Shown here in pieces: positions 8,826-47,623 of a stretch of 64,000 nucleotides of DNA. This DNA comes from an uncultured delta proteobacterium (GTDB lineage Bacteria > Myxococcota_A > Polyangia > Polyangiales > Polyangiaceae): the NCBI GenBank assembly GCA_963827955.1, contig CAWHDJ010000018.1, forward strand, positions 1,053,297 to 1,117,296. The letters are read 5' to 3'. Position 1 is the first letter of the stretch, and each line of letters starts with the position of its first letter. The position numbers and the translations under genes were made by a program. Below the pieces are notes generated by a model. It worked only from the letters and a program-made list of their open reading frames with translations, was not told the origin of the DNA and did not search any database.

Positions 8826-10022
8826 TCAGCTCGCCGGAGCTTCCCACTCGAGGGACCGGTGGATGGCCTCGATTCGGTCGACGTCGACGGGGACTCCGAC
8901 CGCGTCGCCCGCGCGGGCAAGGAAGCGCCGCTCCGGATGGCGGGTCGGGCCGCGCAGCCCAGCGACCACCGCCATCGCGTCGGCGAGCGCCGCGCGCTCG
9001 CGCGCGCCGAGCAGGGACACGCGTTCCAGCCAGCACCGCTCGTCGGGCGCGTCGATGTGCCGAGCGTCGTGCAGCGCCGCCGCCCTCTCGTCGTCCGAGA
9101 GAGACCGAGCAATGGCCGCGACGACCAGGAGCTCTTCGTACGTCGCGACGCCGTTGGCGGTGGCGAGCAGCCAGGCGCCTTCGACGAGGAGGGCGCGGGG
9201 CCCGTTGAAGCTCGCGTTTCGTAGCGCCTCGCGCAGGGCGGCGCGCCGGCGGACGAAGCAGCGGGCCGTTGCACCTACGCGCATCGTGGCCCGGTAGCTG
9301 CCCGCCGCGCCCACCGGGATGCCAACAAACGGCACGAGACCGAGCACCGCGTCCTCGAGGATGCTGCGCCCGAGCCGTGCCAGGATCTCGTCCGCCGTCG
9401 CCAGGCGCGAGGCTTCGCCAGCGCGCCACGGTCCGTCTGCTTTGCTGGCGTGGAGCGCGAGGTCGAAGATCTCTGCCAGCTCCGCCGTGTCGCGCACGTC
9501 GGACGGCACGCCGTAGATCGACCCGAGGTCGAAGACCAGCTCGATCTGCACCTTCGCGGACGCGACGATCTCGCCCGCAAGCGACGCTACAACGGCCGGG
9601 ACACAGATCGGCGCGGCGAGGCCCTCGGTCAGGATCGTCAGAACCTCGCCGACCTGGGCGCCTGCGGCCGCGAGCCCGCCGGAGAGCGCCGCTCGGCGCG
9701 CGGCGTGCGCGATGTGGCGATCGGCGCGCTCGTCCGCAGTCATGCCGGGGTAGAGGGCGTCCCAGTCGGGGCTGTTCCTCTCCGCCAGCGAGCGCTCCAC
9801 GCGCTCGCGCAGGAGCTCGCCGAACCAGCCAAGCCCCTCGGTCGGCAACACGCCGAGCCGCCGCGCGCTCGCGCGCAGCCCTTCGATGTCCAGGCTACTG
9901 GTGGTGTCCCGGCAAAATGCCGGCTCGTAGGCCGAGACGGGGGGCGAAACGCCTGGACGAGATGGGCGCGCGAAGCGCGGGAGCAGCCGCCGGACGGTGG
10001 TCGTGATGGCGCGGGTTACCAT
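8826..10022 (-). CDS. Hypothetical protein, possibly EcsC-like.
   Basis: 398-aa ORF with coding-like composition throughout. No diagnostic motif was recognised. The EcsC suggestion comes only from its Gly/Ala-rich mid region and is weak. Confidence 0.45.
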   Translation of the reverse strand: MVTRAITTTVRRLLPRFARPSRPGVSPPVSAYEPAFCRDTTSSLDIEGLRASARRLGVLPTEGLGWFGELLRERVERSLAERNSPDWDALYPGMTADERADRHIAHAARRAALSGGLAAAGAQVGEVLTILTEGLAAPICVPAVVASLAGEIVASAKVQIELVFDLGSIYGVPSDVRDTAELAEIFDLALHASKADGPWRAGEASRLATADEILARLGRSILEDAVLGLVPFVGIPVGAAGSYRATMRVGATARCFVRRRAALREALRNASFNGPRALLVEGAWLLATANGVATYEELLVVAAIARSLSDDERAAALHDARHIDAPDERCWLERVSLLGARERAALADAMAVVAGLRGPTRHPERRFLARAGDAVGVPVDVDRIEAIHRSLEWEAPAS

Positions 10023-10218: not shown

Positions 10219-11616
10219 TCAGGGGCGGGCGTCCGCCGGCAGCTCGAGCAGGCGCTGGCCGAGAAGCCACACCTCGGCCACGCCGCCCTTGCTCGTGACC
10301 TTGAAGAGCTCCAGGCACCGCTCGCGCAGGTCGAGCAAGTCGCTCGCGTCGCGGCCGGAGCCCGCCTCGATGCGCGCGAGGACCTCGTTGACGCGCCCGT
10401 AGTATCTGTCAGCCGGAACAAGCAGGCCGCCGAGGGCGTGGTGCGTACGCGCATGGTTGTACCAGTGCAGGTGAGCTACGAGACGCCGCCGCATCTCTGC
10501 CGAATCATAGAAGCGATGGGCGTCGAACAGCTCCTTGTGGAGATTGGCGTTGAAGACCTCCACCTTCCCATTCCACTCTTTGTGCTCGGCCTCGAGGTGA
10601 TCGATCCCGAGCTCGGTCAAGAGCGCCGTGAAGCGCGAGACACCCTTCCACGACCAGAAGGCCGCGCCCTTGTCGCTCATCACCATCTCGGGTCGACCGT
10701 GGCGCGCGATTGCCTCCTCGAAGGCGGCGATCACGAAGTCGGCTCGCTCGCCGCCCTCGTCCACGCCATGGCCGACAACGTAGCGCGAGAAGTCGTCGAT
10801 GATGATCAGCGTGAAGGTGTTCGCGCGGTGGATGTTGCGCTGCACGAAGTCCAGATGCCAGAGGTGATTCGGGCGCGTCGCCTCGTAGCGCTGGTCGTGC
10901 ACCTTGCGCTCCACCTTCGGCGGGCGATACCCCGCCCCCTCCATCACCCGGCGCACCGTGTTGACGCTCGTCCGGATGCCCTTGCGCCGGAGCTGGTTGC
11001 GGATCTGGCTCGGCCCGAGCCCCGGATGGCGGTGCCACTCGTCGAGGATCTCCTTGTCGCGCTGCGCCTCGATCTCCTTCGGCGCCGGCCCCGACGTCGG
11101 CGATGGGCCGTTGCCCGCCGCGGCGCTGTGGACCTTCCGCTGCCAGCCGTAGATCGAGTACCGGCTCACGCCGAACTTCTTGCTCGCCTCGGTGATCCCA
11201 TGCGCGGCGGCGTGCTCGAGGACCTCGGCCTTCTGCGACGGCGTGTAGATCATTGCCACCCGCCTCTTGAGCGGTCGACGCACCGGCGGTTGCATGGTTG
11301 CCGCGGGCTCCTCGCGCTTCGCCTCGGCCGGCGGCGCCCCTACCTTCGTGTTCTCGGCCTGCTCCGCGCCGGCCTGCCCCGCTGCCACCTGCCCATCGCG
11401 CGTCTCCTCCTCCGCGGCTCCCTTCCGCTTGCGTCTGGGCCGCGCTCTTTCCTTCGACTTGCGCGCCATCGTCTTCGCCCCCGCTACTTGAGCCCACTTG
11501 GTCAGGGTCGTCTGGGGGACGCCATGCTTCCTCGCCGCCGCGCTGATTCCGAGCGCGGGAACGTCCACCAGCACCGCCTCGCGCTCCTCATTCGTGTAGC
11601 TTCGTCGCGCAGCCAT
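10219..11616 (-). mobile_element. Intact transposase ORF of an IS481-like (rve DDE) insertion sequence. The element probably spans about 10150-11700, but terminal inverted repeats were not resolved by eye.
   Basis: 465-aa uninterrupted ORF. It has two N-terminal HTH segments (RKHGVPQTTLTKWAQ; KKFGVSRYSIYGWQRK) and then HLWHLDFV...IIDDFSRYVVGHGV...SDKGAAF...HARTHHALGG, the DDE/rve signature. Confidence 0.8.
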
Positions 11617-13046: not shown

Positions 13047-13392
13047 AGGCTGGGGACCGACCCCATCGGCCGCAAGGTGGCCCCGCTCCTCACTACGCGC
13101 ACCCCGCCTGCCGACGGTCTAACGCAACGCGACACGCTCGCCGCATTAGGCGTGCGCAGCGCCCACAGCCCGCAGCCACGGCCGCTTCCATCGACCATCA
13201 GGAACCGCTCTGGTCGCGCATCCGCACGCTCTCCCGGGCCCGGCGCCACGTACGAGAACGCCTCGCGCGTCGATTTCCCTAAAAAAAGACGGACACCGGG
13301 AAGGGCCCTACAGCGATGGACGGGTAGAGGCGGTGAAAGGACCGGACCGGCGCCCCGGGGGGGGCGGCGCTTTGCCCGGAGAAGGTGACCCC

Positions 13393-15688
13393 ATGCACGA
13401 CGTCTTCAAAATCAGCTCCCCCGCGCTACCCAAGGACACGGGTGTGGTCGGCTTCCGCGGCTCGGAGGGTATCTCCCGGCTCTACGCGTTCGAGATCCAC
13501 CTGGCGCTCGCCCCTGGCGACGCGGATGCCTTCGAGCTCCCCTCGCGCCGTGGGCGCCAAGGGCACCCTCACCGTCGACCGGCACGACGGCCGCCCGCCA
13601 TTCGCCTTCCACGGCATCTTCGCCGAGGCGACGCTCGTCCACCAGGAGCCCGACGGCCGCGCCTTCCTCCGGGCCGTCCTGGTGCCGCGCCTCTGGCAGC
13701 TCACGCAGTCGCTGCACAGCCGCATCTTCACCCAGCAGTCCATCCCCGACATCCTGAAGAAGACGCTGGAGGATGGCGGGCTCACCTCCTCTGACTTCAG
13801 CTTCCAGCTCACCGGCCAGTACGCCACGGAGGAGCACGTCTGCCAGTACCGCGAGAGCGGCTTCGCCTTCTTCTCGCGGTGGATGGAGCGGGAGGGCCTC
13901 TACTACTTCTTCGAGCACGGCGACGACGGGGAGAAGCTCATCATCGCCGACGACAAGTCCGCGCACGAGGGTCTGGTGCCCAAGCCGGTGCGGTACTTTC
14001 CCCTTCTCGGGCATGACATGAGCGCTGGGGAGTGCCTGCACACCTTCCTGTGCCGGCAGCGAGCGCTTCCGGCCAGCGTGACCTTCAAGGACTACGACCA
14101 CGCGAAGCCCTCGCTCGACGTCTCCGGAACGGCGCCCGTATCCGCGACGGGCGCCGGCGAGGTGCACGTCCACGGCGCGCGATTTTTCACGCCCGACGAC
14201 GGCAAGCGCCTCGCCAAGCTTCGCGCGGAGGAGATGCTCGCCCGCCAACAGGTATTCACCGGGACCGGCACCGCGCTCTACCTGCGGTCGGGCTACACGT
14301 TCGACCTGACCGATCACCCGCGGGCTGCCTTCGACGCGACGTACCTCGTGACCGAGGTGGAGCACTTCGGTAACCAGGCGGCCAGGACCCCGGAGATGCT
14401 CAGGCTCACGGGGCTCGCGGAGGTGGCGGAGGACGAGGTGTACCGCGCCGAGGTCACGGCCATCCCCGCTACCGTGCAGTTCCGGGCAGAGCCGCGAGCG
14501 GTCTGGCCGCGGATTTATGGCACCGAGCACGGCACGGTGGACGGGGAGGCCGACAGCGAGTACGCGCAGCTCGACGACCATGGGCGTTACCTCGTCCGGT
14601 TCGCGTTCGACGAGAGCGACCTGGCCGATGGGAAGGCGTCGACCCGCGTCCGGATGATGCAGCCTCACGGCGGCGGGGTCGAAGGCTGGCACTTCCCGCT
14701 GCGAAAGGGGACGGAGGTGCTGTTCACGTTTCTGGGCGGGGACCCAGACCGACCCGTAATCGCGGGCGTCGTGCCGAACACGGAGAAGCCGAGCCCGGTG
14801 ACGAAGGCGAACCAGACACGGAACGTGATCCAGACGGGCGGGCGCAACAGGCTCGAGATCGAGGACAAGAAGGGGTTCGAGCGGATCACGTGGACCACTC
14901 CGTTCGCGAACACGATGATCCGCATGGGCTCACCGAACGCCGACCACGAGATGATCATCCGGACCGACGGCGCCACGCAGCTCGACGCAGGGCAGGATTG
15001 GGATGTCACTGTTGGCGGACACCTGTTCGAGCATGTGACCGGCCCGGTCGCCGAGAACTATGACACCGGGCATGGGACGACGATCAAGGGCGGTCGAATC
15101 CAGAACGTGACGTCGGGCGGGATGACCACCGACGTCGTTGGTGGCTGGTCCCACACGGTGGACGGTGGGGGCAAAATGGACATCGACGGCGGCTTCAAGG
15201 TGAACGTCACCGGCGACGCGATCACGACCGTGAGCGCTGACGCGGAGACCTTCGTAGGTGCCAACGAGGCGCACGTCGTCGGCGGCACCGCGACGCACAT
15301 CGTCTGCGGCTCGGTATTCCAGAACTACGGCCCAGTGACGGCTGTGTGCGCGAGCCTAGACTGGAGCATCCCCGGCGGCGCGACGGTCCACACGCCAAAG
15401 TGGGAGGTCCAGTCGCCCGAGAAGAACTGGCTCACGGCGCAGGGCATCGAGACGAAGGGCATCAACAAGGAACTCACTGGCCTCAGCTTCGAGACCACTG
15501 GGGTCCTGGTCGAAAGCGTCGGCGGTCACGTGGAGAACGTCGGTCTGCACGTCGAGACCATCGCTCTTCACTTCGAGACCGTCGGAATGCACGGAGCCAA
15601 CAAGCCGATCGAACTCGAAAGCCTCGGCACGTACGTGGGCCAACTCGGCGCGCACATCAAGTCGGCCGTGCTTCACGTGCTCAAGTGA
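13393..15688 (+). CDS. vgrG: Type VI secretion spike protein VgrG (TssI), with a frameshift near 13545.
   Basis: N-terminus MHDVFKISSPALPKDTGVVGFRGSEGISRLYAFEIHLAL in ORF 13333..13794 continues in ORF 13385..15688 with FFSRWMEREGLYYFFEHGDDGEKLIIADD, the gp27-like VgrG hallmark. A Gly-rich gp5-like beta-helical C-terminus is present (GGHLFEHVTG...GGRIQNVTSGG...). Confidence 0.85.
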
Positions 15689-15704
15689 AGGTGCGAGGCA
15701 CGTC

Positions 15705-18330
15705 ATGAAGGTCATCAAGCCCATCAAGCTCCCGATTCTCACCCGCATTGTAGAGCGCGCCCATAAGCCGGAAGCTCCACGTTGCCGCCATGCTCGGCTT
15801 CTCGCTTGACGCCCCCCGCGCCCTCCTCGACGAGATGGCCTTCTGGTCCACGGTGGCCGACGCGCTCGGCGCCTCGGGCGTGGTGGACGAGGGGTTCGCG
15901 AAGTGCCGGGGCGAGCTGCTCGTCGCCGGAAGCTTCTTCGCACCGGACGGGATGCCGCTGGCTGCCTCGTACGTCCGCACGAGGGTCGGCGCGGCGGACA
16001 AGCGCCTCGCAGTTGTCGGCAACCGCCTATGGAAAGACCATGCCGCGACCGATCCGGAGCCGATGGTGTCGATGCCGATCGACTGGGCGCACGCGTTCGG
16101 CGGTCCGCGCTTCGACCGGAACCCCTACGGCAAGGGCATCGACCCGCTGGTGAGCGGGGGGCTGGCGATCCCGCTCCCCAACGTCGACCACTACGGCGCG
16201 ATTACGCGCTCACCGGCCGACCGCGGCCAGCCCGCCGGCTTCCTGCCGATGGACGTCACCTTCGCCCAACGGCGGGCGCGCGCGGGGACGTACGATCAAC
16301 ACTGGCTCGACGAGCACTTCCCGGGCCTAGCCGCGGACGCAGCGCCGACCTTCTTCAACGTCGCGCCCGAGGATCAGTGGATCGAAGGCTTCTTTCGCGG
16401 CGATGAGGAAATCCTCGTCGAGAACATGCACCCCGAGCGTCCCCGTATCGAGGGCCGGCTCCCGGGCCTCGCCGCGCGCTGCTTCGTCACCCAGCGCGTG
16501 CCCGAGGGTGAGCGCTTCGTCGAGGTCCCGCTCCGCTGGGACACGGTCTGGCTCTTTCCCTCAGCCGCGGCCGCAGTCGTTATCGCGCACGGTACGCACG
16601 CGGTCTCCGAGGACGACGCCGCGGACGTGGTGCACCTGATCTGTGGGTGCGAGGACCCGACGTCGCAGCGGCCGGCGGAGCATTACCAGCAGGCGCTCGC
16701 ACGCCGCCTCGACAAGGACAAGGGCGCCCTCGCCGGGCTCTCGGACAGTGACCTGATGCCGCCGCGCGCGTCGGGCGTGGCTCCGAATATCGGCGAAATC
16801 GACATCGCGCGGTGGGTGAAGAGCGAGGGCCTGCACGCGAAGAACATGCGGCGGGGCGCACAGCGGACGCGCGCGGAGGTGAGGGCGATGGTCGAGGCAA
16901 ACGGGCTCGACCCGAAGGACTACGGACTCGGCGAACCTCTGCCCGAGCTAGAAGAGCCGCCGGTCGACGACCTCGATGCGCTGGCGGCCTACATGGAGGC
17001 GCAATCGGCGCGTGCGGACGCGATGCTCGCGGAGGCCAGGGACAAGGAGGCGAACGCGCAGGAGGACGTACGGAGGAAGTGCGCGGAGATGGGGGTCGAC
17101 CTCGACGCGATGATGGCGGAGGGAAAGAAGGGGGGCGTGGGGCCGCCGAAGCTCGACGCCGCGACCGAGGTCGAGAGGCTGCGCGATGTAGGCGTGAGAG
17201 GTGCGGAGGTCGACGCACTCAAGGCCGACGTGCGGCGGCAGGAGCAGGGCCTGATCGAGATGTACCGGCGCTTCGGGCACATGCAGCCCGCTGCGACCGC
17301 CATGGATCCGGAGGCGGCGGCGCGGCTGCGGGTGCTCGTCGCGCTCGCGATCGAGACCGGAGAGAGCCTCGCAGGGCGGGACTTTACGGGCGCGAACCTC
17401 TCCGGAATGCGCCTTGGCCACGTCGATCTCGCAGGGGCCTTCCTCGAAGCGGCCGACCTCTCGGACTGCTGGCTCGGCGACGCGAATCTGGAGGGCGCCG
17501 TGCTCGCGAAGGCGACCCTGCGGGGCGCCAGTCTCTTCAGAGCGAGGCTGCGTAGCGCGAATCTCGGCGGCGCTGTGCTCTGCGATGCGGTGTTCGAGCA
17601 CGCGGATCTCACCGATGCCGTGCTGAGCGAGGCCGACCTTGCCGGCGCGCGGTTCGCGGGCGCGACGCTCACGGGCGCGGATTGGATCGAGGCGAAGCTC
17701 GCCGGGGTGGACTTCTCCGGCGCCGTGCTGAGTCAGTGCAACCTGATCAAGGCGGACCTGCGCGGCACGCGCTTTACCCGTGCGGACCTGTCCGACGCGA
17801 ACCTCGTCGAGTGCACACTCGACGGGGCGGACTTCTCGGGCGCCAAGCTGGTGAAGACTACGTTCGTGGGATGCAAGGGTGAAGGAGTGTCGTTTCGCGA
17901 GGCGAATGTCCGGCAGGGGGTCCTCGTGCACGGCTCCTCCTTCGTGCGCGCCGACTTCCGCGATGCAGACATGGAGAAGGCCAACCTCCGGGGGACCGCC
18001 CTCGCGGGAGCGCACCTCGACCGGGCGAACCTCACCGGCGCGGACCTCTCCGAATGCGATGCCACTGGGGCCACCTTCGAGCGCGCAGTCCTCAAGGGGG
18101 CGCTCATGATTCGCACCGGCCTCGTCGACGTAACGCTGCGGGGCGCGAACCTGATGGATGCCCTCGCGTCCAAGGCTCGGCTCGCCGGGGCCGACTTCTC
18201 GGGGGCCAACCTCTTCCGCGCAGACCTCTCCCGTGTGGTCGGTGATGAACGGACGACGTTCGCCGAGGCGGAGCTGGGTCACGTGCGGCTCCTCCCGAAG
18301 GCCAACGTGCATCCCGGAGGTGCCCGATGA
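15705..18330 (+). CDS. DUF2169-like N-terminal domain fused to a long pentapeptide-repeat C-terminus. This is a T6SS accessory or adaptor candidate, with a frameshift near 15770.
   Basis: ATG at 15705 gives MKVIKPIKLPILTRIVER..., a DUF2169-type start. It is then out of frame with ORF 15790..18330. The C-terminal approximately 350 aa are A(D/N)LxGA-type pentapeptide repeats (ANLSGMRLGHVDLAGAFLEAADLSDCWLGDANLEGAVLAKATLRGASLF...). Confidence 0.75.
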
Positions 18331-19424
18331 ACCGCGATCTGCTCATGGACAAGGTGCGGCACGGCGAGCCCATCCGCCGCATGGATCTCTCGCATGTCGA
18401 TCTCGAAGGCGCCGATCTTTCCGGGGCCGTGTTCGAGGAGGTCCGCTTCCCGAAGGCGCTTCACGGGGCGCTGCTCAAGGAATCGGTCTTCGTGTCGTGC
18501 GACTTCACGGAATGCGACCTAGCCGGCGCGGACCTGCACCTCGCCACCGTGTATCGCTCGAAGCTCGACGGTGCGCTCTTCGATGCGGCCAAGCTGATCG
18601 CGGCGAGCTTTGTCGAGAGCAGCGCTGACGGCGCTTCGCTCACAAGCGTCGAGGCCCCGATCGCGAGCTGGGTGAAGACCTCGCTCCGACGCGCGTCGTT
18701 CGTGGGCTCGAACCTCGACCGAGCGAACCTCGTGGAGATCGACGCCGAGGATGCAGTGTTCACGAACGCCAACCTGGAGAAAGCGACGCTCTACCAGGCC
18801 GACCTGCGCACGACCGACCTCGCGGGCGCGAACCTCACGCTCACGACGCTGGTCGAGGCCAAACTGGGGCCGAAGTCCTTCTCCGGCATCCGGCTCTTCC
18901 GGACGCAGTTCATGAAGAGCGACCTCGCGGGCGCCAGCTTCGCAGGCGTCGACTGCACGCAGTGCAACTTCATGGCGGCGGACCTCCAGGGGGCGACGTT
19001 CGAGCGGGCCACGGGGCCGCAGTGCTTCTTCGGCGAGGCGAAGCTCCAAGGTGCGAGGCTCGTCGGCGGCGACTTCCGCCAGGCCGTGTTCGAGAAGGCG
19101 GACCTCTCGAAGGCGGATCTCTCTGGCGCGATGCTCGAGGAGGCGTACTTCGCGCTCGCCGTCGCCGTGGGAGCTCGCTTTCGCGACGCCAGGCTGCGAG
19201 AGGCGAACTTCTCTCACGCCGACGCCACGGCGGCCGACTTCTCCGGGGCGGCTCTCTTTCGGACGAGGTTCCACCGCGCGAAGCGCGACGGCGCCGCCCT
19301 CGCCGAGCTGGCGGGGTGGCTCGGCGATGACGAGAACCTCGCAAGGATCGAACGCTGGCAGCCGCAACACGGGGCGGCGCCTGATCGAGATGTGGACGGG
19401 CAAAGGAAAGGGTCGGAACGATGA
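18327..19424 (+). CDS. Pentapeptide-repeat protein associated with the T6SS module.
   Basis: Start overlaps the upstream stop (ATGA). Repeats include DLSHVDLEGADLSGAVFEEVRF, ANLEKATLYQADLRTTDLAGANLTL and ADLQGATFERA. Confidence 0.8.
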   Translation: MNRDLLMDKVRHGEPIRRMDLSHVDLEGADLSGAVFEEVRFPKALHGALLKESVFVSCDFTECDLAGADLHLATVYRSKLDGALFDAAKLIAASFVESSADGASLTSVEAPIASWVKTSLRRASFVGSNLDRANLVEIDAEDAVFTNANLEKATLYQADLRTTDLAGANLTLTTLVEAKLGPKSFSGIRLFRTQFMKSDLAGASFAGVDCTQCNFMAADLQGATFERATGPQCFFGEAKLQGARLVGGDFRQAVFEKADLSKADLSGAMLEEAYFALAVAVGARFRDARLREANFSHADATAADFSGAALFRTRFHRAKRDGAALAELAGWLGDDENLARIERWQPQHGAAPDRDVDGQRKGSER

Positions 19425-20065
19425 ACGCCGCGAAGAAGCTCGCTAGCACGGAGACGTACCTCGAGACCGGGACGGTGGAGCGCATCCTCAGCGGGACGGT
19501 CGAGGTGCGGCACGCCTCGGGAACCTGCCAAGCCCGGCGCGCGAAAGGTTGCCTCGTGCCTCCCGAGATCGGCGACACGGTGCTCTGCGCGCGAAGCGCG
19601 GAGGGCGCGTGGGTGCTCACCGTGTTGGAGGGCGAGGCGGGCGCGCCGACGCGGCTCGTCGGGGACGGCGACGTGCACATTCAGTCCCAGGGCGGCCGGG
19701 TCACGATCTCCTCGCCCGAGCGGGTCGACCTCGTGAGCGGCGGCGCCGTCGCGGTAAGCTCAGCCGAGCTCCACGTGCACGCCCGCAAGGGCTCCGTCGC
19801 CGTGGACGAGCTGGGCTTCCTCGGCAAGCTGGTGCGGGCGGAGGTGGCGAAGATCGTCGTGGTCGCCGAAGAGGTGGACTCCGTTCTCACGCGGCTGACC
19901 CAGCGGGCCAAGCGCGTCTTCCGCTTCGTCGAGGAGATCGACCAGACGCGCGCCGGCACCGTCGACATGCGCGCCCAGAACCTCGTCGGCATCCGCGGGG
20001 AGAACGCCGTGATCTCGGCGCGGGTGCTCGCCAAGATCGACGGTGAGCAGATCCACCTCGGCTGA
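19421..20065 (+). CDS. DUF3540-like protein, which commonly follows pentapeptide-repeat genes in vgrG islands.
   Basis: 214-aa ORF with overlapping start (ATGA). The call rests on gene context and size and was made from memory of the family, not from a search. Confidence 0.6.
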   Translation: MNAAKKLASTETYLETGTVERILSGTVEVRHASGTCQARRAKGCLVPPEIGDTVLCARSAEGAWVLTVLEGEAGAPTRLVGDGDVHIQSQGGRVTISSPERVDLVSGGAVAVSSAELHVHARKGSVAVDELGFLGKLVRAEVAKIVVVAEEVDSVLTRLTQRAKRVFRFVEEIDQTRAGTVDMRAQNLVGIRGENAVISARVLAKIDGEQIHLG

Positions 20066-20092
20066 GCGACGAGCAAGGAAGGAGGCTCCTCC

Positions 20093-20494
20093 ATGTTGGC
20101 GAAGACATCCGCTGGCGGGCTCTGCACCGCATTTCCGGACGTGTGCCTGACACCCGCACCGCCCGCGCCCGCGCCGGTCCCGATCCCCTACCCGAACATC
20201 GGCGCCAATCCCACCAACGTGAGCTTCGTGCCCAACGTGCTCCTGACGTGCGCCCCGGCGCACAACATGGGCACGCAGCCACCGATGACGAACGGTGACA
20301 ACGCCGGCCTGGCAACCGGCGTCGCCTCCGGGACCGTGATGGGCCCGGCGCGCACGGTGACCGCGGCGTTCACAGTTCTCGTCGGGGGCATGCCGCTCGC
20401 ACGGCTCACCAGCGTGACGATCCAGAACAACACGAACGCCCCCGGCGCCAAGGTCGTGCCCAGCGCCACCAACGTCCTCGTCCTGGCCCCGTGA
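20093..20494 (+). CDS. DUF4150 (PAAR-like) domain protein. It is a standalone 133 aa with no fused toxin domain.
   Basis: MLAKTSAGGLCTAFPDVCLTPAPPAPAPVPIPYPNIGAN..., the PAAR-like DUF4150 N-terminal signature. It ends 10 bp before the next ORF, which is in a different frame. Confidence 0.7.
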   Translation: MLAKTSAGGLCTAFPDVCLTPAPPAPAPVPIPYPNIGANPTNVSFVPNVLLTCAPAHNMGTQPPMTNGDNAGLATGVASGTVMGPARTVTAAFTVLVGGMPLARLTSVTIQNNTNAPGAKVVPSATNVLVLAP

Positions 20495-20504
20495 GAACGC
20501 GCAC

Positions 20505-21953
20505 ATGAACGAGCAGAACCGACAGCGGCTAGGGCGCATCGCCACGCGGCACACCCGTTGCGTGGCGCATGGGCAGAGCGAGACCGAGAGCGACGCGACG
20601 TTCATCGCCGAGTTCGGACGCGTCCGAGATGAAGTGCTGCGACCCGTCATGGATGAGGTGGGTCTCCAGCTCCAAACGGACGGGTACGAGTTTCGGATCG
20701 CCAATGGGGGCACCGAAGCATCGCCCGCGGTCGAGTTCCACGTCGTGATCCCGGGCCGCACCGACGCGAAGGACACGATCCGGCTTTTCGCGCACAAGGA
20801 CGCCTTGCGTGGCTGGCAGGTGATCGCCGAGATCGAGCTCAAGCGAAGCCCGATGGAGCTGGCTCGCTTTGACGCCGGCGACCCGATCACGCGGGACGTC
20901 GCCGAGCGGCTCATCGTGGACGCGACGGAGCAAGTGTTCGCGTCGGCGCTGTCGGCCCCGAGCCGAGAAGCAGAAGCGCGCGCAACGCCGTCGGAGTCGG
21001 TGTCACCGCGACCGCCGGTAGCGGACGTGGCTCCAGCGGCCACTGGCCCGCACCCTGCGGAGGGCGCAGTCGGCGCGCGCGCCCTCGTCCTCCAGCGGCT
21101 CCGTGCCGGCCGCCTTCTCTACGGTCTCAACCTCGTTGGCGCCGACCTCCACGGCATCGACTTTACGGACCGTATGATGCCCGCGCTCGACCTCCGAGAA
21201 GCGAACCTGAGCGGCTGCACCCTCGTCGGGGCGCGACTCGTCGCCGCACGGCTCGACGGCGCCGACCTCACCGACACGGACCTGACGCGCGCCGACCTCA
21301 CACGCGCCAACCTCATCGGCGCTACCCTGACGGGCGCCCGGCTCGACGGAGCCGTGCTCAGCGATACGGTGGGCTTGCAGCTCGCTCCCGCAGACGCTCC
21401 CGAGCCCGAGCCGGAGCCGGAGCCTCGCGCTGTAGAAGCGCCCGCGGAGCACGTCGACGTCTTCGCCGTGCCCGACAAGCCGCCTCCGCTGCCGCCCTTG
21501 CCCGCGGGCCCGGAGATCCGCTGGGCGGGTTGGGCTGGAGAGCAGCGCATGGGCGACACGGAGGAGGTGGACGTGCGGGTCTTCCAGCGACGCGCACTTC
21601 CCTTCGCTGAGGGGCCCCCGGCACCGGAGTTCTTTGCCGCTGCGGACGCCGCGAGAACGGAGCCGCGCGTCTCGCGACCCCCGGGAAACGAGACCGTGGC
21701 ACTGCCCGTGCTCCAGGTGCCCGACGAGCCGCTGACCGTGGAGCAGTACGCCGCGTTCTGCGCGGAGCTGTCGGTCTTTCCGGACGCTGCGGACAGCATC
21801 CATCGGCAGTACGGCGTGCCCGGCGCGGAAGCGCGTGGCCTCCTCGATGCGGCGTTCGCGCGACGGTTCGCCGCCGACCCGACGCTCGAGCGAAAGTGCC
21901 GCGCGCTGGTCCGGCACTACGAGGGCTGGTTCCGTCGCGAAGGTCCGCGGTAG
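20505..21953 (+). CDS. Unknown three-part protein with a novel N-terminal domain of about 150 aa, central pentapeptide repeats and a novel C-terminal domain of about 150 aa. It is a candidate T6SS cargo or immunity protein.
   Basis: Central repeats: LNLVGADLHGIDF...LREANLSGCTLVGARLVAARLDGADLTDTDLTRADLTRANLIGATLTGARLDGAVL. The flanking domains match nothing I recognise. Confidence 0.65.
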   Translation: MNEQNRQRLGRIATRHTRCVAHGQSETESDATFIAEFGRVRDEVLRPVMDEVGLQLQTDGYEFRIANGGTEASPAVEFHVVIPGRTDAKDTIRLFAHKDALRGWQVIAEIELKRSPMELARFDAGDPITRDVAERLIVDATEQVFASALSAPSREAEARATPSESVSPRPPVADVAPAATGPHPAEGAVGARALVLQRLRAGRLLYGLNLVGADLHGIDFTDRMMPALDLREANLSGCTLVGARLVAARLDGADLTDTDLTRADLTRANLIGATLTGARLDGAVLSDTVGLQLAPADAPEPEPEPEPRAVEAPAEHVDVFAVPDKPPPLPPLPAGPEIRWAGWAGEQRMGDTEEVDVRVFQRRALPFAEGPPAPEFFAAADAARTEPRVSRPPGNETVALPVLQVPDEPLTVEQYAAFCAELSVFPDAADSIHRQYGVPGAEARGLLDAAFARRFAADPTLERKCRALVRHYEGWFRREGPR

Positions 21954-39479: not shown

Positions 39480-40570
39480 GTTCAACAATACCGCGTCACC
39501 ATCGAACGGAGCCTCGGTGCTGTTCGACAAACCCTTGGCGCCGTCGAACCGGTCCGCGGCGCCGTTCGACGCGCCCGCGCTCCGTGTGCGCGACCCGGGG
39601 CTCGATGTGCGCGACCCGGGGATCCATGTGCGCGACCCGGGGCGCCATCAAACGGACCCGCGGGGCGATCACACGGACCCGCGGGGTGATCGAATGGATC
39701 CGCGGGGCGATCACACGGACCCGCGGCGCCGTTTGCATTCCCCGCGCGCCGTTGTGTCGGCCGCGCGGCGTCGTGACCGGATCCCCTCGGCGCCGTTCGA
39801 CAAACCCTTGGCGCCATCAAACGGACCCGCGGTGCCGTTCGACAAACCCTCGGCGCCAGTACACGGACCTGCGGGATGATCGAATGGGTCCGCGGGGCGA
39901 TCACACAGACCCGCGGGGTGATCGCATGGATCCGCGGGGCGATCACACGGACCCGCGGGGCGATCACACGGACCCGCAGGGCGATCACACGGACCCGCGG
40001 CACCGTTTGATCGCCCCCGCGGTCGGTCGAACGAATTCCACCGCCGGTGTACGTACCGAAACGCGTCGTGTGAGATGCGCCGGCGCGCCTTCAAACGGCG
40101 CGCGGGGCGATCGAACGGAGCCCGCGACCGGTTGGATCGAGCCCGCGACCGGTTGGATCGAGCCCCGGTGCCGTTCTATGGGGCCGCGGACCGGTGCAAC
40201 GACGCCGGGGGTCCGTGTGATCGCCCCGCGGGTCCGTGTGATCGCCCCGCGGGTCCGTTTGATGGAGCCGCGGGCCCGTGTGATCGCCCCGCGGGTCCGT
40301 TTGATGGAGCCGCGGTCCTGCTCAACGGCGTCGCGGGTCCGTTTGATGGAGCCGCGGAGCGCGCAGACGGAGCGGCAGGAGGCGAAGACGGCGCTGCGGC
40401 CCGTGTAGAAGGAGGGGCGGGGCGCGGAGACGGCGCTGGGGGATCGTTCGACGGCGCCACGGCGCACGCAGATGGTGTCGCGGCTTCGGGAGACGGAGCC
40501 GCGGCGCACGGCCATGGATCCGAGGGGCGCGGAGACGGAGCCGCGGTCCATGTAGAGAAGGAGGGGCGCC
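39480..40570. repeat. Intergenic array of 21-bp tandem repeats organised as inverted arms. Arm A (about 39575-40010) has units CGATCACACGGACCCGCGGGG. Arm B (about 40190-40340) has units GGTCCGTGTGATCGCCCCGCG, the reverse complement. Further 21-bp-periodic units (GAGACGGAGCCGCGG...) run to about 40560.
   Basis: Read directly from the sequence. There are at least 12 units per arm. The spacer contains its own 21-bp direct duplication (gagcccgcgaccggttggatc twice, near 40118-40160). There are no unique spacers, so this is not CRISPR-like. Confidence 0.85.
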
Positions 40571-42305: not shown

Positions 42306-42450
42306 GGGCCGGCATCGTAGGGTGGGCGGGCCGCCGCAGTCTACGGACGACGGCGCCGCGGGCACGGAGACGGGGTGGGGAGGGGAGACGGGGCGGAGGG
42401 TACGTAGAAGGAGAGGCGGGGAGGGGCGGAACGCGTCGGGCGCAAGGGCC

Positions 42451-42514
42451 GTGCCAGTGGTCCGGAAGCGATCGACATCGAGCCCTTCACTTTCTTGGAC
42501 ACTCACCCCCCTCC
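42451..42514. repeat. 64-bp element GTGCCAGTGGTCCGGAAG(C)GATCGACATCGAGCCCTTCACTTTCTTGGACACTCACCCCCCTCC, copy 1 of 2. A TTGTAGGAGC motif lies downstream.
   Basis: Identical apart from one base to the copy at 44689-44752. Confidence 0.85.
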
Positions 42515-42572
42515 AGCCGACCGTTTGTAGGAGCACCGCTTCTTGTAGGAGCCCCGAGCACGACCGGCGAGG

Positions 42573-43712
42573 ATGCCCATGGACTACCGGAACGAGCGAG
42601 ATGCCCTGCGGGGGCGCGTCGAGCGCCTGGAGCAGGACCTGGAGCAGGCGCAGCGGGAGCTCGCCGAGGCGCGGCGGATCGCGGGCGAGGCGGCGGCGGA
42701 GGGGTCGCGGGCCGAGGCGGAGCGGCTCGCCGGGCTCGAGGCGGCGATGCCGGAGGCCGAGGCGCTCATCTACAGGCTGCGGAGGGAGCTGGCGGCGGTC
42801 GAGTTGATGCACCGGGAGCGGCAGGCGACGGTGCAGGACCCCAAGGCGGTGGGCGGCGAGGCGCCGGAGCCGAGCCCTCCGCGGGCCGCGCGCAGGCGAT
42901 GGAGCGCGCTGCTCGCGCTCGCCGTCGTCCCTGCGATGGCGGGTGGCGCTCTGCTCGCTCAGCGATACCGGGTCCACGAGCGGGAGCAGCGGGAGCAGGA
43001 GCAGCGCAACCTGCAGACATGCCAGAACGCCTTCGCCTGTTGCCTGCGGAACAAGGAACCGGGCGACCCTGACTGCACGTGGGCGGTGACGCACTGCGAC
43101 GACTATCTGAGTGAGCACGACTGCTCGGAGCCCCGTCCGCGCAGCCGCGCCGCGCCCGTCCCGCCCACCGCGCAGCCCACGCCGCCCCCGCGCACGGTGG
43201 CCCCCGAGCAGGCTTCGGTGAGGAGACCGTCGCTCGGCCAGGTTCGCCACGCGGTCTGGTCCGGCCGCGTCACGAGGACGACCGGCAGCGCCCCCCCGCC
43301 CGGCTCCAGGTGCATCGTCGAGGCCGAGCTGCAAAGCGCATCCATCGGTATTCGCCTGACCGACTTGACCGTGACGTGCGGCGGCAAGAAGCTGTACTGG
43401 ACCGAGGGCGAGCTCGCGCGCGCCTCCGGAACCAACGGGATCGTCCTCGAACAAGCAGGCCGTACCCCGGGCACGTTCGTGTACGGCCTCCACTACGAGG
43501 AGGCCGGCTTCAGCACCGGACAGAGCGGGTTGGTCGCGATCAACACCGCGCTGGGGCTCGGCGCCGTCTGGCGCGACACGCTGCCGGCGTTCCGGGTCGA
43601 GCTCTCGCTGGCGAAGTCGAGCGAGCCCGTGGCGGGGGAGCCGTTCGCCGATCCCCCGCGTGCAGAGGGGAAGGGTTCGACGCCCGGTGCGACGCGCGCT
43701 GGGGGGGATTAG
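42573..43712 (+). CDS. Hypothetical protein with coiled-coil, a transmembrane helix and a C-terminal domain. First of two tandem paralogs.
   Basis: MPMDYRNERDALRGRVERLEQDLEQAQRELAEARR..., a TM helix (WSALLALAVVPAMAGGALLA) and a C-terminal domain ...TVTCGGKKLYWTEGELARASG...AVWRDTLPAFRVELSLAKSSEPV. Confidence 0.55.
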   Translation: MPMDYRNERDALRGRVERLEQDLEQAQRELAEARRIAGEAAAEGSRAEAERLAGLEAAMPEAEALIYRLRRELAAVELMHRERQATVQDPKAVGGEAPEPSPPRAARRRWSALLALAVVPAMAGGALLAQRYRVHEREQREQEQRNLQTCQNAFACCLRNKEPGDPDCTWAVTHCDDYLSEHDCSEPRPRSRAAPVPPTAQPTPPPRTVAPEQASVRRPSLGQVRHAVWSGRVTRTTGSAPPPGSRCIVEAELQSASIGIRLTDLTVTCGGKKLYWTEGELARASGTNGIVLEQAGRTPGTFVYGLHYEEAGFSTGQSGLVAINTALGLGAVWRDTLPAFRVELSLAKSSEPVAGEPFADPPRAEGKGSTPGATRAGGD

Positions 43713-43715
43713 GCC

Positions 43716-44664
43716 ATGGACTACCGGAACGAGCGAGATGCCCTGCGGGGGCGCGTGGAGAGTCTGGAGCAGGAGCTGGACGACGCGCGGCGGGAGCTTG
43801 CCGAGGCGCGACGGGTCGCGGGCGAGGCGGCGGCGGAGGGGGCGCAGGCCGAGGCGGAGCGGCTCCAGAGGCTCGGGGCGGCGATGCCGGAGGCGGAGGC
43901 GCTCATCCACCGGCTGCGAGGGGAGCTTTCGGCGGTCGACGAGATGCACGCGGCACGTGCGCGTGATGTGAAGGAATCGGAAAGGCAGGCGCCGGTCGGC
44001 GAGGTCCTTCCAGCAAGGGCGCGGCAGCGGATCTCGCCGACGTTGAAAGCGATCCTGCCCGCGATCGTTCCGCTTGCGGCGTTCATCATCTTCGGCGCGA
44101 TTCGGTACTGCACCACGCGAGAGCACGAGACCAAGCCGCCCGCGCCGCCGATCGCAACCGCCTCGCTCAGCGCGCAGCCCTCAGCGGAGGCGCCCGTGGG
44201 CGAAGCTCCGGCCCGTGACGCGAGGTCACCACGAGCTGCACGCGTCGTGGTTCGGCGGCGTGACGAACGCTACCGGGAGCGCTCCGCCGATTGGCTCGTC
44301 GTGTATGATCGATGCCGCCTTCGCAGGCGCGGTCCACGACATCCGCCTGAAGGAGCTCGACGTCACGTGCGGTGACGAACGGATCTTCTCCTCCGCGAGC
44401 GAGCTCGTCGTGCCCGCGGCGAACGAGGCCATCTCCGCGTTCGAATCGCACCCCGACAAGTATGGCATCCACTACGACGAGGAGGGTGTCGGCGGTGGGG
44501 AGCGCGGGCACATCATCGTCGACAGCGCGCACGGGCGGTGCACCGTGTGGCGGGATGCGTTTCCCGCGTTCCGGGTCGAGATCGCCATGGAGGAGAAGAG
44601 CGAGCCCGTCGACCTGAAGGGGCGTCGGGCCGAGGGTGCCGAGCCGGAGAAGGGGCGACCGTGA
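43716..44664 (+). CDS. Paralog of the preceding gene, with a frameshift near 44215.
   Basis: MDYRNERDALRGRVESLEQELDDARRELAEARR... with a TM helix (ILPAIVPLAAFIIFGAI). The C-terminal domain is in ORF 44074..44664 (DVTCGDERIFSSASELVVP...TVWRDAFPAFRVEIAMEEKSEPV). Confidence 0.5.
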
Positions 44665-44688
44665 GCTTCAGGCGATCGCGCAACTGCC

Positions 44689-44752
44689 GTGCCAGTGGTC
44701 CGGAAGAGATCGACATCGAGCCCTTCACTTTCTTGGACACTCACCCCCCTCC
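44689..44752. repeat. Second copy of the 64-bp element, about 150 bp upstream of the vgrG remnant.
   Basis: gtgccagtggtccggaagagatcgacatcgagcccttcactttcttggacactcacccccctcc. Confidence 0.85.
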
Positions 44753-44897
44753 TGCCGCGCGTTTGTAGGAGCACCCGATTGGCAGGCCCCGCGGGGGCGA
44801 CCTGGTAGACGAGCGAACCGCGCCTTCGTAGGAGCCCCAAGCAACGCCGACCGTTGACGCTCGCCACAGACCAGACCAACCACGCCCCCAGGAGACG

Positions 44898-45060
44898 GTG
44901 ACCATGTCCGACATCTTCACGACCAGCTCCCCCTCGCTCCCCAGGGTGGATGGAGCGCGAGGGGATCTACTACTTCTTCGAGCAGGGCGACGACGGGGAG
45001 AAGCTCATCGTCGCCGACGTCCCGGACACGCTCGTGGTCTTCCCCGATCACGCGCGCTTC
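44898..45060 (+). pseudogene. vgrG: Degenerate vgrG 5' remnant. The VgrG N-terminus (MSDIFTTSSPSLP) joins directly to the WMEREGIYYFFEQGDDGEKLIVADV segment, with about 150 codons missing in between.
   Basis: ORF 44898..45161 (MTMSDIFTTSSPSLPRV) and ORF 44950..45171 (MEREGIYYFFEQGDDGEKLIVADVPDTLVVFPDHARFF) are collinear with the intact VgrG at 13393 (MHDVFKISSPALPKD ... WMEREGLYYFFEHGDDGEKLIIADD). Confidence 0.55.
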
Positions 45061-45316
45061 TTCGTCGTCGCGCGGCGCGCGTTCGTCTACCAGTTCCGTC
45101 GAGCGCAGGGTATTCGCAGGGTACCGCGCGGCCCCGCAAGCGCCGCGGTTGGCCCCAATGAACGAGCCTGAGGACCCAGCCCGCCACGGCGCGTGGCCCA
45201 CGCCGCGCGAGCTACCGGACCGCTTCCCCGAGGTGGGAGACGACGAGACGATGCTGCTCGAAGGGGTGAAGGCGTTCATCGACGGCACGCTCGTGACCCC
45301 GGGCGGGGAGGCGTGA

Positions 45317-46162
45317 ATGGGGGTGCTGAGGCGTTTCATCGACGCGTTCGTGCGGACATGGAGGGAGCTGCAAGCGATCTCCGAGTTGGACACGGAGGGG
45401 GAGTATCCGCTCGACCTGCGGCTCCTGGATGCGGATGTAGGCCCCTACATGCCTCTGGACGAGGTCGCTTTGGAGTACGCGCTCCAAGAGGTACGCGCCG
45501 GCCGCATTCCGAAGCGTTCTCGAAAGGCGCTCCGAGACGCCTTCGTTGAGCGCGTCGCCTGGCTCGGCCCCCCGTGGTCAGTTATTGGGGTGCTCTTGCT
45601 TGGCGTCGTCCCAGGCAGCATTGCGGCGAGGAGTCCCCCGTGTGTAATCTTGCTATACTTCGTCCTCTTGATCGGCGGCCTCCTCGTGCCCACGGTCCTG
45701 TGGTGGCGCCTCCGACGTGACGTGCGCGAACAGCGGCTCCGGATCGAGGAGGGCGAGCTCACGCGCAAGTGGATTCGCCCCGCGTTGCGCCCCAAAGCCT
45801 CGGTCGACGTGATGTGCGTTCGCATCGGCGGCCACTGGCATGACGTACGCTCCCCCGCCCTGTTCGCGCAGCTCGGCTTCGGGGTCCGGTATCGCATGTA
45901 CGTGAGCGCGCACGCCGGTCGCCTCATCGCGATCGAGTCCGTCGAGCGCGAGGCGCCCGCAGGGTACCGCGACGCGCCGGCAGGAGCGCCGCGGTTGGCC
46001 CCCATGAACGAGCCCGGGGACCGTGCGCAGCGCGGAGCGTGGCCCACGCCGCGCGAGCTGCCGGACCGCTTGCCCGAGGTGAGCGACGACGAGACGATGC
46101 CGCTCGAAGGGGTGGAGGCGTTCATCGACGGTGCGCTCGTGATGCCAGGCGGGGAGGCGTGA
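45317..46162 (+). CDS. Membrane protein of unknown function, the full copy of a tandemly repeated cassette. Candidate orphan immunity protein.
   Basis: 281-aa ORF with TM helices (VIGVLLLGVVPGSIAARSPPCVILLYFVLLIGGLLVPTVLWW). Its C-terminal tail ...GYRDAPAGAPRLAPMNEPGDRAQRGAWPTPRELPDRLPEVSDDETMPLEGVEAFIDGALVMPGGEA also occurs, about 85% identical at the DNA level, at 45120-45316 fused to the vgrG remnant. Confidence 0.5.
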   Translation: MGVLRRFIDAFVRTWRELQAISELDTEGEYPLDLRLLDADVGPYMPLDEVALEYALQEVRAGRIPKRSRKALRDAFVERVAWLGPPWSVIGVLLLGVVPGSIAARSPPCVILLYFVLLIGGLLVPTVLWWRLRRDVREQRLRIEEGELTRKWIRPALRPKASVDVMCVRIGGHWHDVRSPALFAQLGFGVRYRMYVSAHAGRLIAIESVEREAPAGYRDAPAGAPRLAPMNEPGDRAQRGAWPTPRELPDRLPEVSDDETMPLEGVEAFIDGALVMPGGEA

Positions 46163-46673
46163 ATGGGAGCGCTGAGGCGCATCGTCGACGCGGCCGCGCG
46201 GCGGTGGAGGGCGTTTCGGGGGATCTCCGAGATGGAGGTCGACGGGCAGTTCCCTCTCGTTCTCACGCTGACGGACGGTTTTCGGCCGTCGGGGCAGGAG
46301 GTTCAGGAGCTCAATGCGGGCCGAATCCCGGAGCGCTGCCTGGACGCCCTCGGAGAGGTGGCTACCAGGCGGGCGCCGGGAACCCGCCTTGCGTGGGTCG
46401 TCGGGCTCCCCCTCACATTCGCCGCCGTGATGAGCATCTGCGTCGGTCCTCCCGATGGCGAGCCGTCCCGTGTCGGATCCGTGCGATGGCTCGTGGTTTT
46501 CTGCGTACCGCATGTACTTGAGTGCGCGAGCGGGACGGCTCATCGCGATCGAGTCCGTCGACCGCACCGTCGGGCGCGATGTATTCGCAGGATATCGAGC
46601 GCCCCCGGGCAGGAGCACCGAGGGCAGCACCATGAAGGAACCTGAAGGCCAAACGCAGCGGAGCCGCCCATGA
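46163..46673 (+). pseudogene. Third, truncated and frameshifted copy of the cassette.
   Basis: MGALRRIVDAAARRWRAFRGISEMEVDGQFPLVLTLTDG... parallels MGVLRRFIDAFVRTWRELQAISELDTEGEYPLDLRLLD. The tail YRMYLSARAGRLIAIESVDR in ORF 46455..46673 parallels YRMYVSAHAGRLIAIESVER. Confidence 0.45.
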
Positions 46674-47623
46674 TGCAGACACCCCTCACCAGGGAACCGG
46701 AGAAGGCCGTCGCGGCGGCCGACGGGCCGCTCGGCGTCGAGCGCTACGCGGAGGTGCTGGCGCACATCGTCTACTTCAAGGTCCCGTCGAGGCCGGAGGT
46801 CCTGCAGCGGCTCGGGATCGACCCGTCGGCATGGGCGGCGGCGGACGCGAAGTGGATGCAAGCGCTCGTGGACGAGGCGCTCGAGGACGAGCACCCCGTG
46901 GCGGCGGCCTTCGCCGCGGCCTTCGCGCCCGTGCTCAAGCGGCTGAAGGCGGAGAAGCCGTCGATCGACTCCATCGGCACGCCGCCCTCGCCGCCGTCTC
47001 CTCCGAAAGCGCGGTCTGCCGCCCCCGTGCTCCCACCCCCTGCGCCGCCGCCGGTCGACGAACCTCCCGCGCCCGCCGTCGGCACGGAGCTGCCCACCTA
47101 CCTCCTGCCCTCTCGTCCCCCGGTGCCCGCTCGCTCCCCGCTCGCCGCGACCTCGCTCGCCCTCGACCTCCCCATCGGCCCCGCGCTCCCCTTCGCCAAG
47201 AGCACGGGCGCCGAGCCTCCCGCGCCGTCCCCACCGACGCCCCCTTCACCCAGCGTCGCCGGCGACAGCGCGGCCGCACCGACGCTTCCGCGCGTCCAGA
47301 AGGCACCGGCGCACCTCACCGGGACCATGAGCGTCAGCGACCTACCCGTCGCGGCGGTGCTCCCCTTCGCGCAGGGCGCCGCGGGCGAGGCTCCGGCGCT
47401 CACCCTGGAGGAGTACGCGTCGCTGCGGGCCAGCCTCACCGTGAACGGAGAGGAGGACGCGGCGACGTGGAAGCAGTTCGGGATCGTTTCGCAGGCGATG
47501 AAGGAGGCGCTCCAGGCGCGCTTCGCGGCCAGGTTCCGCGACGACGCGGAGGCGCGGGACCGCTTCGTGGCGCTGCTGCAGCGGATGGTGGGCGAGCTGC
47601 GCGCCAAGGCTCACGGTGGCTGA
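46670..47623 (+). CDS. Pro/Ala-rich hypothetical protein.
   Basis: 317-aa ORF with structured N- and C-terminal regions and a PxxP-rich middle. The start overlaps the preceding stop. Confidence 0.45.
   Translation: MMQTPLTREPEKAVAAADGPLGVERYAEVLAHIVYFKVPSRPEVLQRLGIDPSAWAAADAKWMQALVDEALEDEHPVAAAFAAAFAPVLKRLKAEKPSIDSIGTPPSPPSPPKARSAAPVLPPPAPPPVDEPPAPAVGTELPTYLLPSRPPVPARSPLAATSLALDLPIGPALPFAKSTGAEPPAPSPPTPPSPSVAGDSAAAPTLPRVQKAPAHLTGTMSVSDLPVAAVLPFAQGAAGEAPALTLEEYASLRASLTVNGEEDAATWKQFGIVSQAMKEALQARFAARFRDDAEARDRFVALLQRMVGELRAKAHGG

Follow-up and report, generated by a model that had tools for sequence, protein, structure and literature searches.

Probable remnant of an auxiliary spike module for type VI secretion on a myxobacterial contig, with a membrane-protein gene joined in frame to a chaperone tail

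Type VI secretion system (T6SS) immunity arrays in Vibrio cholerae are proposed to grow by sequential displacement through homology-facilitated illegitimate recombination, which leaves 3′ fragments of upstream genes behind (Kirchberger et al. 2017, PMC5361080). According to Jackson et al. (2009), as cited in PMC5361080, arrays of the Rhs/CDI (contact-dependent inhibition) type are generated by recombination at conserved upstream sequence. In the Tvp systems, DUF2169 proteins (TvpA) serve as chaperones of VgrG-PIPY/DUF4150 spike tips (PMC11883445, PMC13373197). Here we describe a locus at 44.9-47.6 kb of a 64-kb stretch of contig CAWHDJ010000018.1 (the whole stretch is called the window) that shares features with these systems. 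Taken as a whole, the region is likely to be what remains of an auxiliary T6SS spike module, of which the 3′ end alone survives. At its center lies a 281-residue protein from a tiny membrane-protein family, named memb here, which ends in the C-terminal peptide of a DUF2169 chaperone. The G+C content of the whole window is 71.7%, and its relatives are myxobacterial: one protein of the related locus L002 carries a MYXO-CTERM sorting domain, and the nearest genomic matches of the chaperone lie in Nannocystis radixulma and in metagenome-assembled genomes of Polyangia/Myxococcales.

The elements of the locus are given below. The two DUF2169 genes of the intact module are written DUF2169-1 and DUF2169-2, the three memb units A, B, and C, the two copies of the chaperone tail T_A and T_B, and the partner gene downstream X.

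44904..44944, + strand: vgrG 5′ fragment (MSDIFTTSSPSLP...), ~13 codons, with ATG at 44904
44945..45021, + strand: vgrG internal fragment (WMEREGIYYFFEQGDDGEKLIVADV), in another frame than the 5′ fragment; found by blastn, Pfam, and hidden Markov model (HMM)
45022..45096, + strand: DUF2169-1 (TvpA-type) fragment (PDTLVVFPDHARFFVVARRAFVYQF), 75 nt, in frame with the vgrG internal piece
45095..45184, + strand: unit A, memb 3′ stub (SVERRVFAGYRAAPQAPRLAPMNEPEDPAR), last 30 residues kept; aligns with the C-terminal region of the family
45185..45316, + strand: T_A, last 43 codons of DUF2169-2 plus stop (HGAWPTPRELPDR...DGTLVTPGGEA, stop); found by blastp and HMM
45317..46030, + strand: unit B core, intact memb (238 codons) without its native last 4 codons; memb HMM E 1e-79
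46031..46162, + strand: T_B, C-terminal 43 codons of DUF2169-2 plus stop, in frame on unit B; disordered in the AlphaFold2 (AF2) model
46163..46673, + strand: unit C, memb-paralog pseudogene with a native C-terminus (...RSRP, stop); memb HMM matches in two frames
46670..47623, + strand: X, partner gene, 317 aa; begins within the unit C stop (ATGA overlap)

The tail of the 281-residue protein carries the main result. The first-pass annotation had noticed a repeat at 45120-45316 and taken it for a copy of the native 3′ tail of the following gene. The repeat is real, but it starts at 45095 and consists of two parts, a memb 3′ end (45095-45184) and a DUF2169 tail (45185-45316), and the latter corresponds to the C-terminal 43 residues of DUF2169-2 instead. 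A search of the 281-residue protein against 5.8 billion protein clusters returned just seven matches. Two of these, the DUF2169 proteins P0006 and P0007 (PF09937), match only its last ~45 residues (ending ...IVWHGAWPTPRDLPDRFPEEGDDETMDLEGVEAFIDGALVPPGGAP). As the Pfam DUF2169 domain spans residues 17-344 of P0006, the tail represents a short extension just past the domain. T_A is 85% identical in amino acids to the P0006 C-terminus and matches positions 350-390 of the DUF2169_2 HMM (E 1e-14). The native memb C-terminus, found in P0002, P0003, and unit C, reads ...EP(G/E)D.A.RSRP before the stop. Because the tail matches DUF2169 ends while the memb relatives end in RSRP, the 281-residue protein is a chimera. 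On sequence comparison, its tail is the last 43 codons of DUF2169-2, foreign to memb and apparently captured by an illegitimate in-frame join: memb is cut four codons before its stop and fused in frame to codon H344 of DUF2169-2. The same join is found twice, as ...EDPAR/HGAWPTP in unit A and ...DRAQ/RGAWPTP in unit B, with CAC (H) replaced by CGC (R), and T_A and T_B share 88% nucleotide identity without gaps. A shared join at the same codon, together with tails this similar, indicates that it arose once and was then duplicated; two independent joins at one codon are very unlikely. Annotation pipelines would call this chimeric reading frame an ordinary hypothetical protein.

We considered whether the likeness between memb and the chaperone extends beyond the tail. 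MAFFT and blastp hinted that the memb beta domain might align over 140 residues with the C-terminal part of DUF2169-2; this homology was ruled out by hhalign, which gave a probability of 0.06% for a tail-less memb profile against DUF2169-2, the similarity being confined to the tail. Docking of the tail onto memb was likewise rejected, as the AF2 model of the chimera leaves residues 239-281 disordered, with a predicted local distance difference test score (pLDDT) below 50. The tails give no clear sign of purifying selection (dN/dS 0.5-2.0 on 13-17 differences), and neither AF2 nor dN/dS gives a sign of a functional role for the tail.

The units that carry these tails were compared with each other. 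Self-comparison of the array region recovered every repeat that had been listed, at or near its reported place, and none was a chance match: 45095-45413 matches 45938-46259 at 81% over 322 nt (E 3e-84), 46505-46565 matches 45889-45949 at 85%, and the unit A stub is 84% identical to 45938-46026 of unit B. Unit boundaries coincide with stop and start codons, as had been observed, with TGAATGGG at both 45314-45321 and 46160-46167. The idea of three tandem copies from one duplication was not upheld. Units A and B are 84-88% identical, whereas B and C share 72-79% in their alignable 5′ and 3′ ends; by this measure A and B are a recent pair and C is an older, diverged paralog. The 281-aa open reading frame (45317-46162; unit B plus T_B) has a G+C content at third codon positions of 0.84, hence a coding-type composition. 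Its predicted transmembrane (TM) helices were confirmed as two hydrophobic helices (residues ~80-104 and ~106-130), with which the AF2 helices agree. The nearest relative of unit B is P0002 (270 aa; 75% amino acid identity), a paralog elsewhere on the same 1.78-Mb contig. Unit C, reported as truncated and frameshifted, is indeed a broken copy, but one out-of-frame internal deletion of ~300 nt explains both defects; it takes out the second TM helix, RDVRERRLRxEEGELT, and the greater part of the beta domain. The N-terminal part of unit C is closest to P0005 from another sample, and the unit occupies the position of P0003 in the related locus L012.

Upstream of the array, scraps of two further genes were identified. 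The 5′ end of the region had been described as a vgrG start fused to a downstream vgrG segment with about 150 codons deleted. Both pieces are real by self-blastn: 44888-44946 matches the 5′ end of vgrG-1, the vgrG gene of another cluster in the window (13375-13435; 79%, E 1e-7), and 44945-45019 matches the vgrG-1 interior (13878-13952; 93%, E 1e-26). The internal piece is also recognized by Pfam Phage_GPD (E 5e-5) and by a VgrG HMM (positions 164-188, E 1e-6). Relative to vgrG-1, ~443 nt (~148 codons) are lost between the two, but they are out of frame with each other (ATG at 44904 versus WMEREG, TGG-ATG, from 44947) and thus do not form an in-frame fusion. Only ~13 and 25 codons are left, and a functional vgrG spike gene, that is, a complete gp27/gp5-like gene of ~600-800 aa in one frame, is not present at the locus. 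Nor does the vgrG segment run straight into the repeated tail, since the DUF2169-1 fragment lies between the vgrG scrap and unit A. Its PDTLVVFPDHARFFVVARRAFVYQF corresponds to PDTLCVFPDHARFYVVARRAFVYEF near the end of DUF2169-1 in locus L001, with 60% identity over 48 aa by blastp (E 5e-12) and a match to HMM positions 278-313 (hmmsearch E 3e-12). No DUF2169 (PF09937) domain of ~290 residues survives in 44.9-47.6 kb; the DUF2169 remains comprise the 75 nt (25 codons) of DUF2169-1 and two 132-nt copies of the DUF2169-2 tail.

Relatives with complete loci enabled us to place these scraps. The intact module is ordered vgrG, a small TvpC-like protein, DUF2169-1, a 250-280-aa protein, DUF2169-2, memb, and X. 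In L001 these are vgrG, a 143-aa protein, a DUF2169 gene (376 aa), a 253-aa protein, a second DUF2169 gene (P0006), memb (P0004), and a 445-aa X homolog, and all seven genes are found as in L001 in L002-L004. L007 and L012 contain the end of DUF2169-2 with the same tail, followed by memb and X; in L009 memb comes after DUF2169; and L008 (1-1357) holds memb, then another TM-plus-beta protein of distant similarity, then the beginning of a vgrG. Seven of the ten memb contigs examined (L001, L002, L007, L008, L009, L010, and L012) thus have memb beside vgrG and/or DUF2169, the other three being shorter than 2 kb, in line with the T6SS association of the 281-residue protein that had been suspected. 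The order of scraps in the window (vgrG, DUF2169-1, DUF2169-2 tail, memb, X) equals the intact order in L001, L002, and L012, and this collinearity makes the suspected decayed second spike locus well supported. L012 is a close relative with a single-copy DUF2169-2, memb (P0003), and X, and with the same ATGA overlap of memb and X. Its tail and memb 5′ end align contiguously with T_B and the start of unit C at 84%, and X is 83% identical in nucleotides. A contiguous match at the same level as X identifies T_B-C-X as the resident, orthologous segment. The more distant Nannocystis/Polyangia loci L013-L017 share the core of vgrG ... DUF2169, 250-280-aa protein, DUF2169, and memb and X are absent downstream of their DUF2169-2; the two genes belong to a variable 3′ slot. 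Searches with memb peptide patterns found no match in the GTDB species representatives, and a metagenome scan yielded one additional locus.

Two further observations concern these relatives. In P0009 (444 aa; L006 112-1446), two memb copies are naturally fused in frame; together with the pair in L008, this indicates that tandem multiplication of the memb-type gene recurs in other organisms. The conserved 250-280-aa protein always lies between the two DUF2169 genes (L001 8098-8859; L002 6554-7393; L013-L016 ~9000-9900), where a PIPY/DUF4150 tip is expected, and the C-terminal third of the protein is hydrophobic or amphipathic. An assignment as such a tip was rejected, with no Pfam match at E 0.1 and an hhalign probability of 0.1% against the DUF4150 protein of the window. 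The protein is a candidate for a novel spike tip or effector.

The family itself is small and fast-diverging. Of 1.84 billion representatives at 50% identity, 26 belong to memb, and its mean column identity is 23-27%. The N-terminal part consists of a helix, a G..PL.L motif, and RAGRIPxR; two TM helices follow, then RD(L/V)RERRLRxEEGELTxKW, a variable linker, and a beta domain (VRIGxR...LGxGVRYRxYLSAHAGxLxAIES, then GYR), and unit B carries all of these motifs. AF2 on a 20-sequence alignment (pLDDT 80) predicted a helical hairpin at 67-138 (helices 67-103 and 108-138) and a five-strand domain at 140-208. Across the family, Arg and Lys are abundant on either side of the hairpin, and its helices are linked by a short loop of acidic or neutral character; judged by these features, both soluble parts would probably face the cytoplasm. 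Collectively, unit B is predicted to be a potentially functional protein of the inner membrane, in which a helical N-terminal region precedes a two-helix hairpin and a small beta domain, with a disordered foreign tail attached. DUF2500/YhhM-like membrane-anchored beta-domain proteins (PDB 3q6c, 3rd4) resemble memb with weak scores, ~10% identity, and no sequence-profile match. X is a soluble protein built of repeats of a helical domain with Pro-rich linkers between them; its homologs, a handful and unannotated, are encoded after memb in L001, L002, L007, and L012, and in L006 memb is followed by an X-like N-terminus. Neither memb nor X had a match in Pfam, NCBIfam, PADLOC, or PDB sequence searches, and no delivery or toxin domain (PAAR/PIPY, MIX, or other) was found in either by Pfam/NCBIfam. 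The pair is very rare and, with memb beside vgrG or DUF2169 genes on seven of the ten contigs, is a candidate for a new myxobacterial T6SS module of cargo or immunity type.

Compared with the orphan immunity arrays of V. cholerae, the memb array likewise lies in the part of a vgrG cluster that varies, its 3′ region, contains several diverged paralogs of one small gene in tandem, has a 3′ fragment of a conserved upstream gene before each unit, and retains downstream genes where those upstream have been replaced or lost. Its units A, B, and C are tandem small-gene paralogs at a 3′ end, kept after upstream loss. In contrast to the V. cholerae arrays, the fragment kept here was supplied by a chaperone gene (DUF2169) and not by an effector gene; it continues the reading frame of the cassette before it, and this join was duplicated; the whole upstream machinery including vgrG has decayed; and the immunity role of memb is a candidate role only. 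Moreover, memb is not directly downstream of an effector gene, but follows DUF2169-2 and, in L010, a TvpC-like gene. The Tvp/DUF2169 systems (Sachar et al. 2025, PMC11883445; Monlezun et al. 2026, PMC13373197) share with the relatives' loci vgrG, a TvpC-like gene, and DUF2169 in the expected order. They differ from the module in that it has two DUF2169 genes, with a protein between them that bears no detectable similarity to DUF4150, and in that memb and X are not among the described components; this architecture does not obviously fit the Tvp class descriptions. The Rhs/CDI orphan C-terminal displacement arrays, as far as their citation in PMC5361080 describes them (Jackson et al. 2009), are similar rows of 3′ gene ends that were displaced, with a small gene downstream of each, but the present locus has neither an Rhs or CdiA core nor a toxin domain, its unit being a chaperone tail plus a membrane protein. 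A decayed auxiliary T6SS island whose cassette array arose through illegitimate and unequal recombination is a known kind of structure; the in-frame capture of a chaperone tail adds a small new twist, and the families are uncharacterized. The picture of T6SS evolution is unchanged, with known patterns extended to a new lineage and new families.

A history consistent with these observations can be proposed. The resident state would have been DUF2169-2, memb of the C type, and X, as still present in L012. A second memb of the B type may then have arrived or been duplicated, either by tandem duplication or by displacement as proposed for the Vibrio immunity arrays, and have been joined illegitimately, four codons before its stop, to H344 of DUF2169-2, producing a chimera of memb and tail directly upstream of the resident memb. 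The join-bearing unit would next have been duplicated, probably by unequal crossing-over between tail copies, to give A with its tail, B with its tail, and C. Finally, at least four deletions would have removed the vgrG middle, the vgrG 3′ part up to DUF2169-1, the DUF2169-1 3′ part together with the bulk of unit A, and the interior of C, leaving unit B and X with potential function. In this history the join, its duplication, and the deletions show the stepwise rebuilding and then the abandonment of the variable end of a T6SS spike island.

Neither a known family nor a known fold points to what memb does. We tentatively prefer for it, at less than even confidence, a role as a retained immunity-type protein against a membrane-acting cargo of the module. 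This role is suggested by the tandem diverged paralogs in the window, by the double gene P0009 in L006 and the pair in L008, by the persistence of an intact copy after every delivery gene was destroyed, and by the fast divergence and patchy distribution of the family. Several observations weigh against it or against the history above. No toxin was identified in the module; searches of Pfam, NCBIfam, PADLOC, and PDB sequences matched memb to no known immunity family; in intact relatives it follows DUF2169-2, a chaperone gene rather than a toxin gene, and in L010 it even lies upstream of DUF2169 (vgrG, small TvpC-like protein, memb, DUF2169); its soluble domains probably look cytoplasmic; and X is always kept with it. 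With mosaic relationships among B, C, and P0003, the recombination events can be ordered only approximately, and frameshifts elsewhere in the window (vgrG-1 and Y2, a split gene described below) raise the possibility of long-read indel errors, for which the deletions at the array are too large. The same frame breaks (single bases at ~13540 in vgrG-1 and in the gene copy 43716-44664), along with a source resembling a long-read metagenome assembly, could be taken to mean that the repeats are an assembly artefact or the pseudogenes sequencing errors. We regard this as very improbable: the copies are 72-88% identical with many substitutions, those at 81-88% being too different on sequence grounds for an assembly duplication, the defects are deletions of 75 to > 1000 nt rather than homopolymer indels, and the junction sequences are unique.

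Alternatively, memb could be the cargo, a membrane-inserting effector loaded via DUF2169-2, with X as its immunity protein or partner and the array as duplicated effector genes. DUF2169 proteins do chaperone the adjacently encoded protein (PMC11883445, PMC13373197), memb is translationally coupled to DUF2169-2 through overlapping or abutting stop and start codons, the conserved memb-X pair has an ATGA overlap as in effector-immunity pairs, and the two genes fill the variable 3′ slot. However, memb lacks a delivery domain (PAAR, PIPY, MIX, or other), its tandem paralogs (in the window, L006, and L008) come without a duplicated X, a soluble X with Pro-rich linkers would be unusual as immunity to a membrane toxin, and retention of an intact memb without vgrG and both chaperones would be pointless for an effector; we consider this role rather unlikely. 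A minor chance is also given to memb and X being accessory or assembly factors, for example a membrane dock for the VgrG-chaperone pre-complex, with the extra copies as neutral recombination by-products. The probably cytoplasmic soluble domains (Arg/Lys-rich flanks, short periplasmic loop), the several class-specific accessory proteins of Tvp systems (PMC13373197), and the varying position of memb within the cluster (L010) would fit such factors, whereas memb and X are absent from otherwise similar modules of Nannocystis and other Polyangia, and so tiny and fast-diverging a family (mean column identity 23-27%) would sooner be expected of cargo or immunity proteins than of structural helpers. 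Some other role for memb has a small probability as well. More speculatively, and in our view improbably, memb and X may be an undescribed cargo/immunity or effector/immunity pair specific to the two-DUF2169 Polyangia-type module, with the 281-residue chimera as a live neo-gene, an orphan protective membrane protein that captured the peptide by which DUF2169-2 normally docks to its partner. If this were true, the fusion would record a physical interaction of DUF2169-2 with that partner.

The flanks of the array contain a repeated leader and a second pair of rare genes.

44678..44775, + strand: leader element upstream of the vgrG remnant, with a second copy upstream of gene 42573-43712; found by repeat match

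This 98-nt non-coding element is 94% identical to 42440-42537, with a 42-nt core that is the same in every letter (0 occurrences expected by chance), and both copies are followed by a GTAGGAGC(A/C)CC motif. It had no Rfam match, and Rfam, promoter, and terminator scans of 42.0-47.8 kb gave nothing usable. Between its copies lies Y, a tandem pair of another rare membrane-protein gene (42573-44664) with a coiled coil, one TM helix, a Cys-rich stretch, and a beta domain; Y1 (42573-43712) is intact, and Y2 (43716-44664) is split across two frames. Y has 13 homologs, some partial ones in Sorangium, and had no match in Pfam, NCBIfam, PADLOC, or PDB sequence searches. No T6SS link was shown for Y, and a link to memb was dismissed, as a 76-residue coiled-coil match of 36% to the P0012 C-terminus was too weak to use.

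A further spike cluster occupies 13.4-20.5 kb of the window. It is a complete Tvp-type cluster, assigned to class III after PMC13373197, and is followed by one extra pentapeptide gene.

13385-15688: VgrG (vgrG-1), open reading frame of the class III cluster; Phage_GPD E 1e-67
13385-21953: gene order VgrG, DUF2169 with pentapeptide repeats, pentapeptide protein, DUF3540, Tox-PAAR-like/DUF4150, further pentapeptide protein

The true start of vgrG-1 is ATG 13393 (MHDVFKISSPALPKD...), in a frame different from that of the long open reading frame. The frame switches at ~13535-13550, inside a C-rich run, which reflects either a true 5′ frameshift or an indel introduced by long-read sequencing. The last gene (20505-21953) combines pentapeptide repeats with a C-terminal domain akin to that of X. 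Elsewhere, 39579-40546 consists of ~1 kb of 21-nt tandem repeats (unit GACCCGCGGGGCGATCAAACG) in two opposed arms around 40100-40170, with surroundings of doubtful coding potential. An IS3-family-like transposase (HTH_Tnp_1 and rve integrase core) is encoded on the minus strand at 10219-11616, ~1.8 kb upstream of the class III vgrG.

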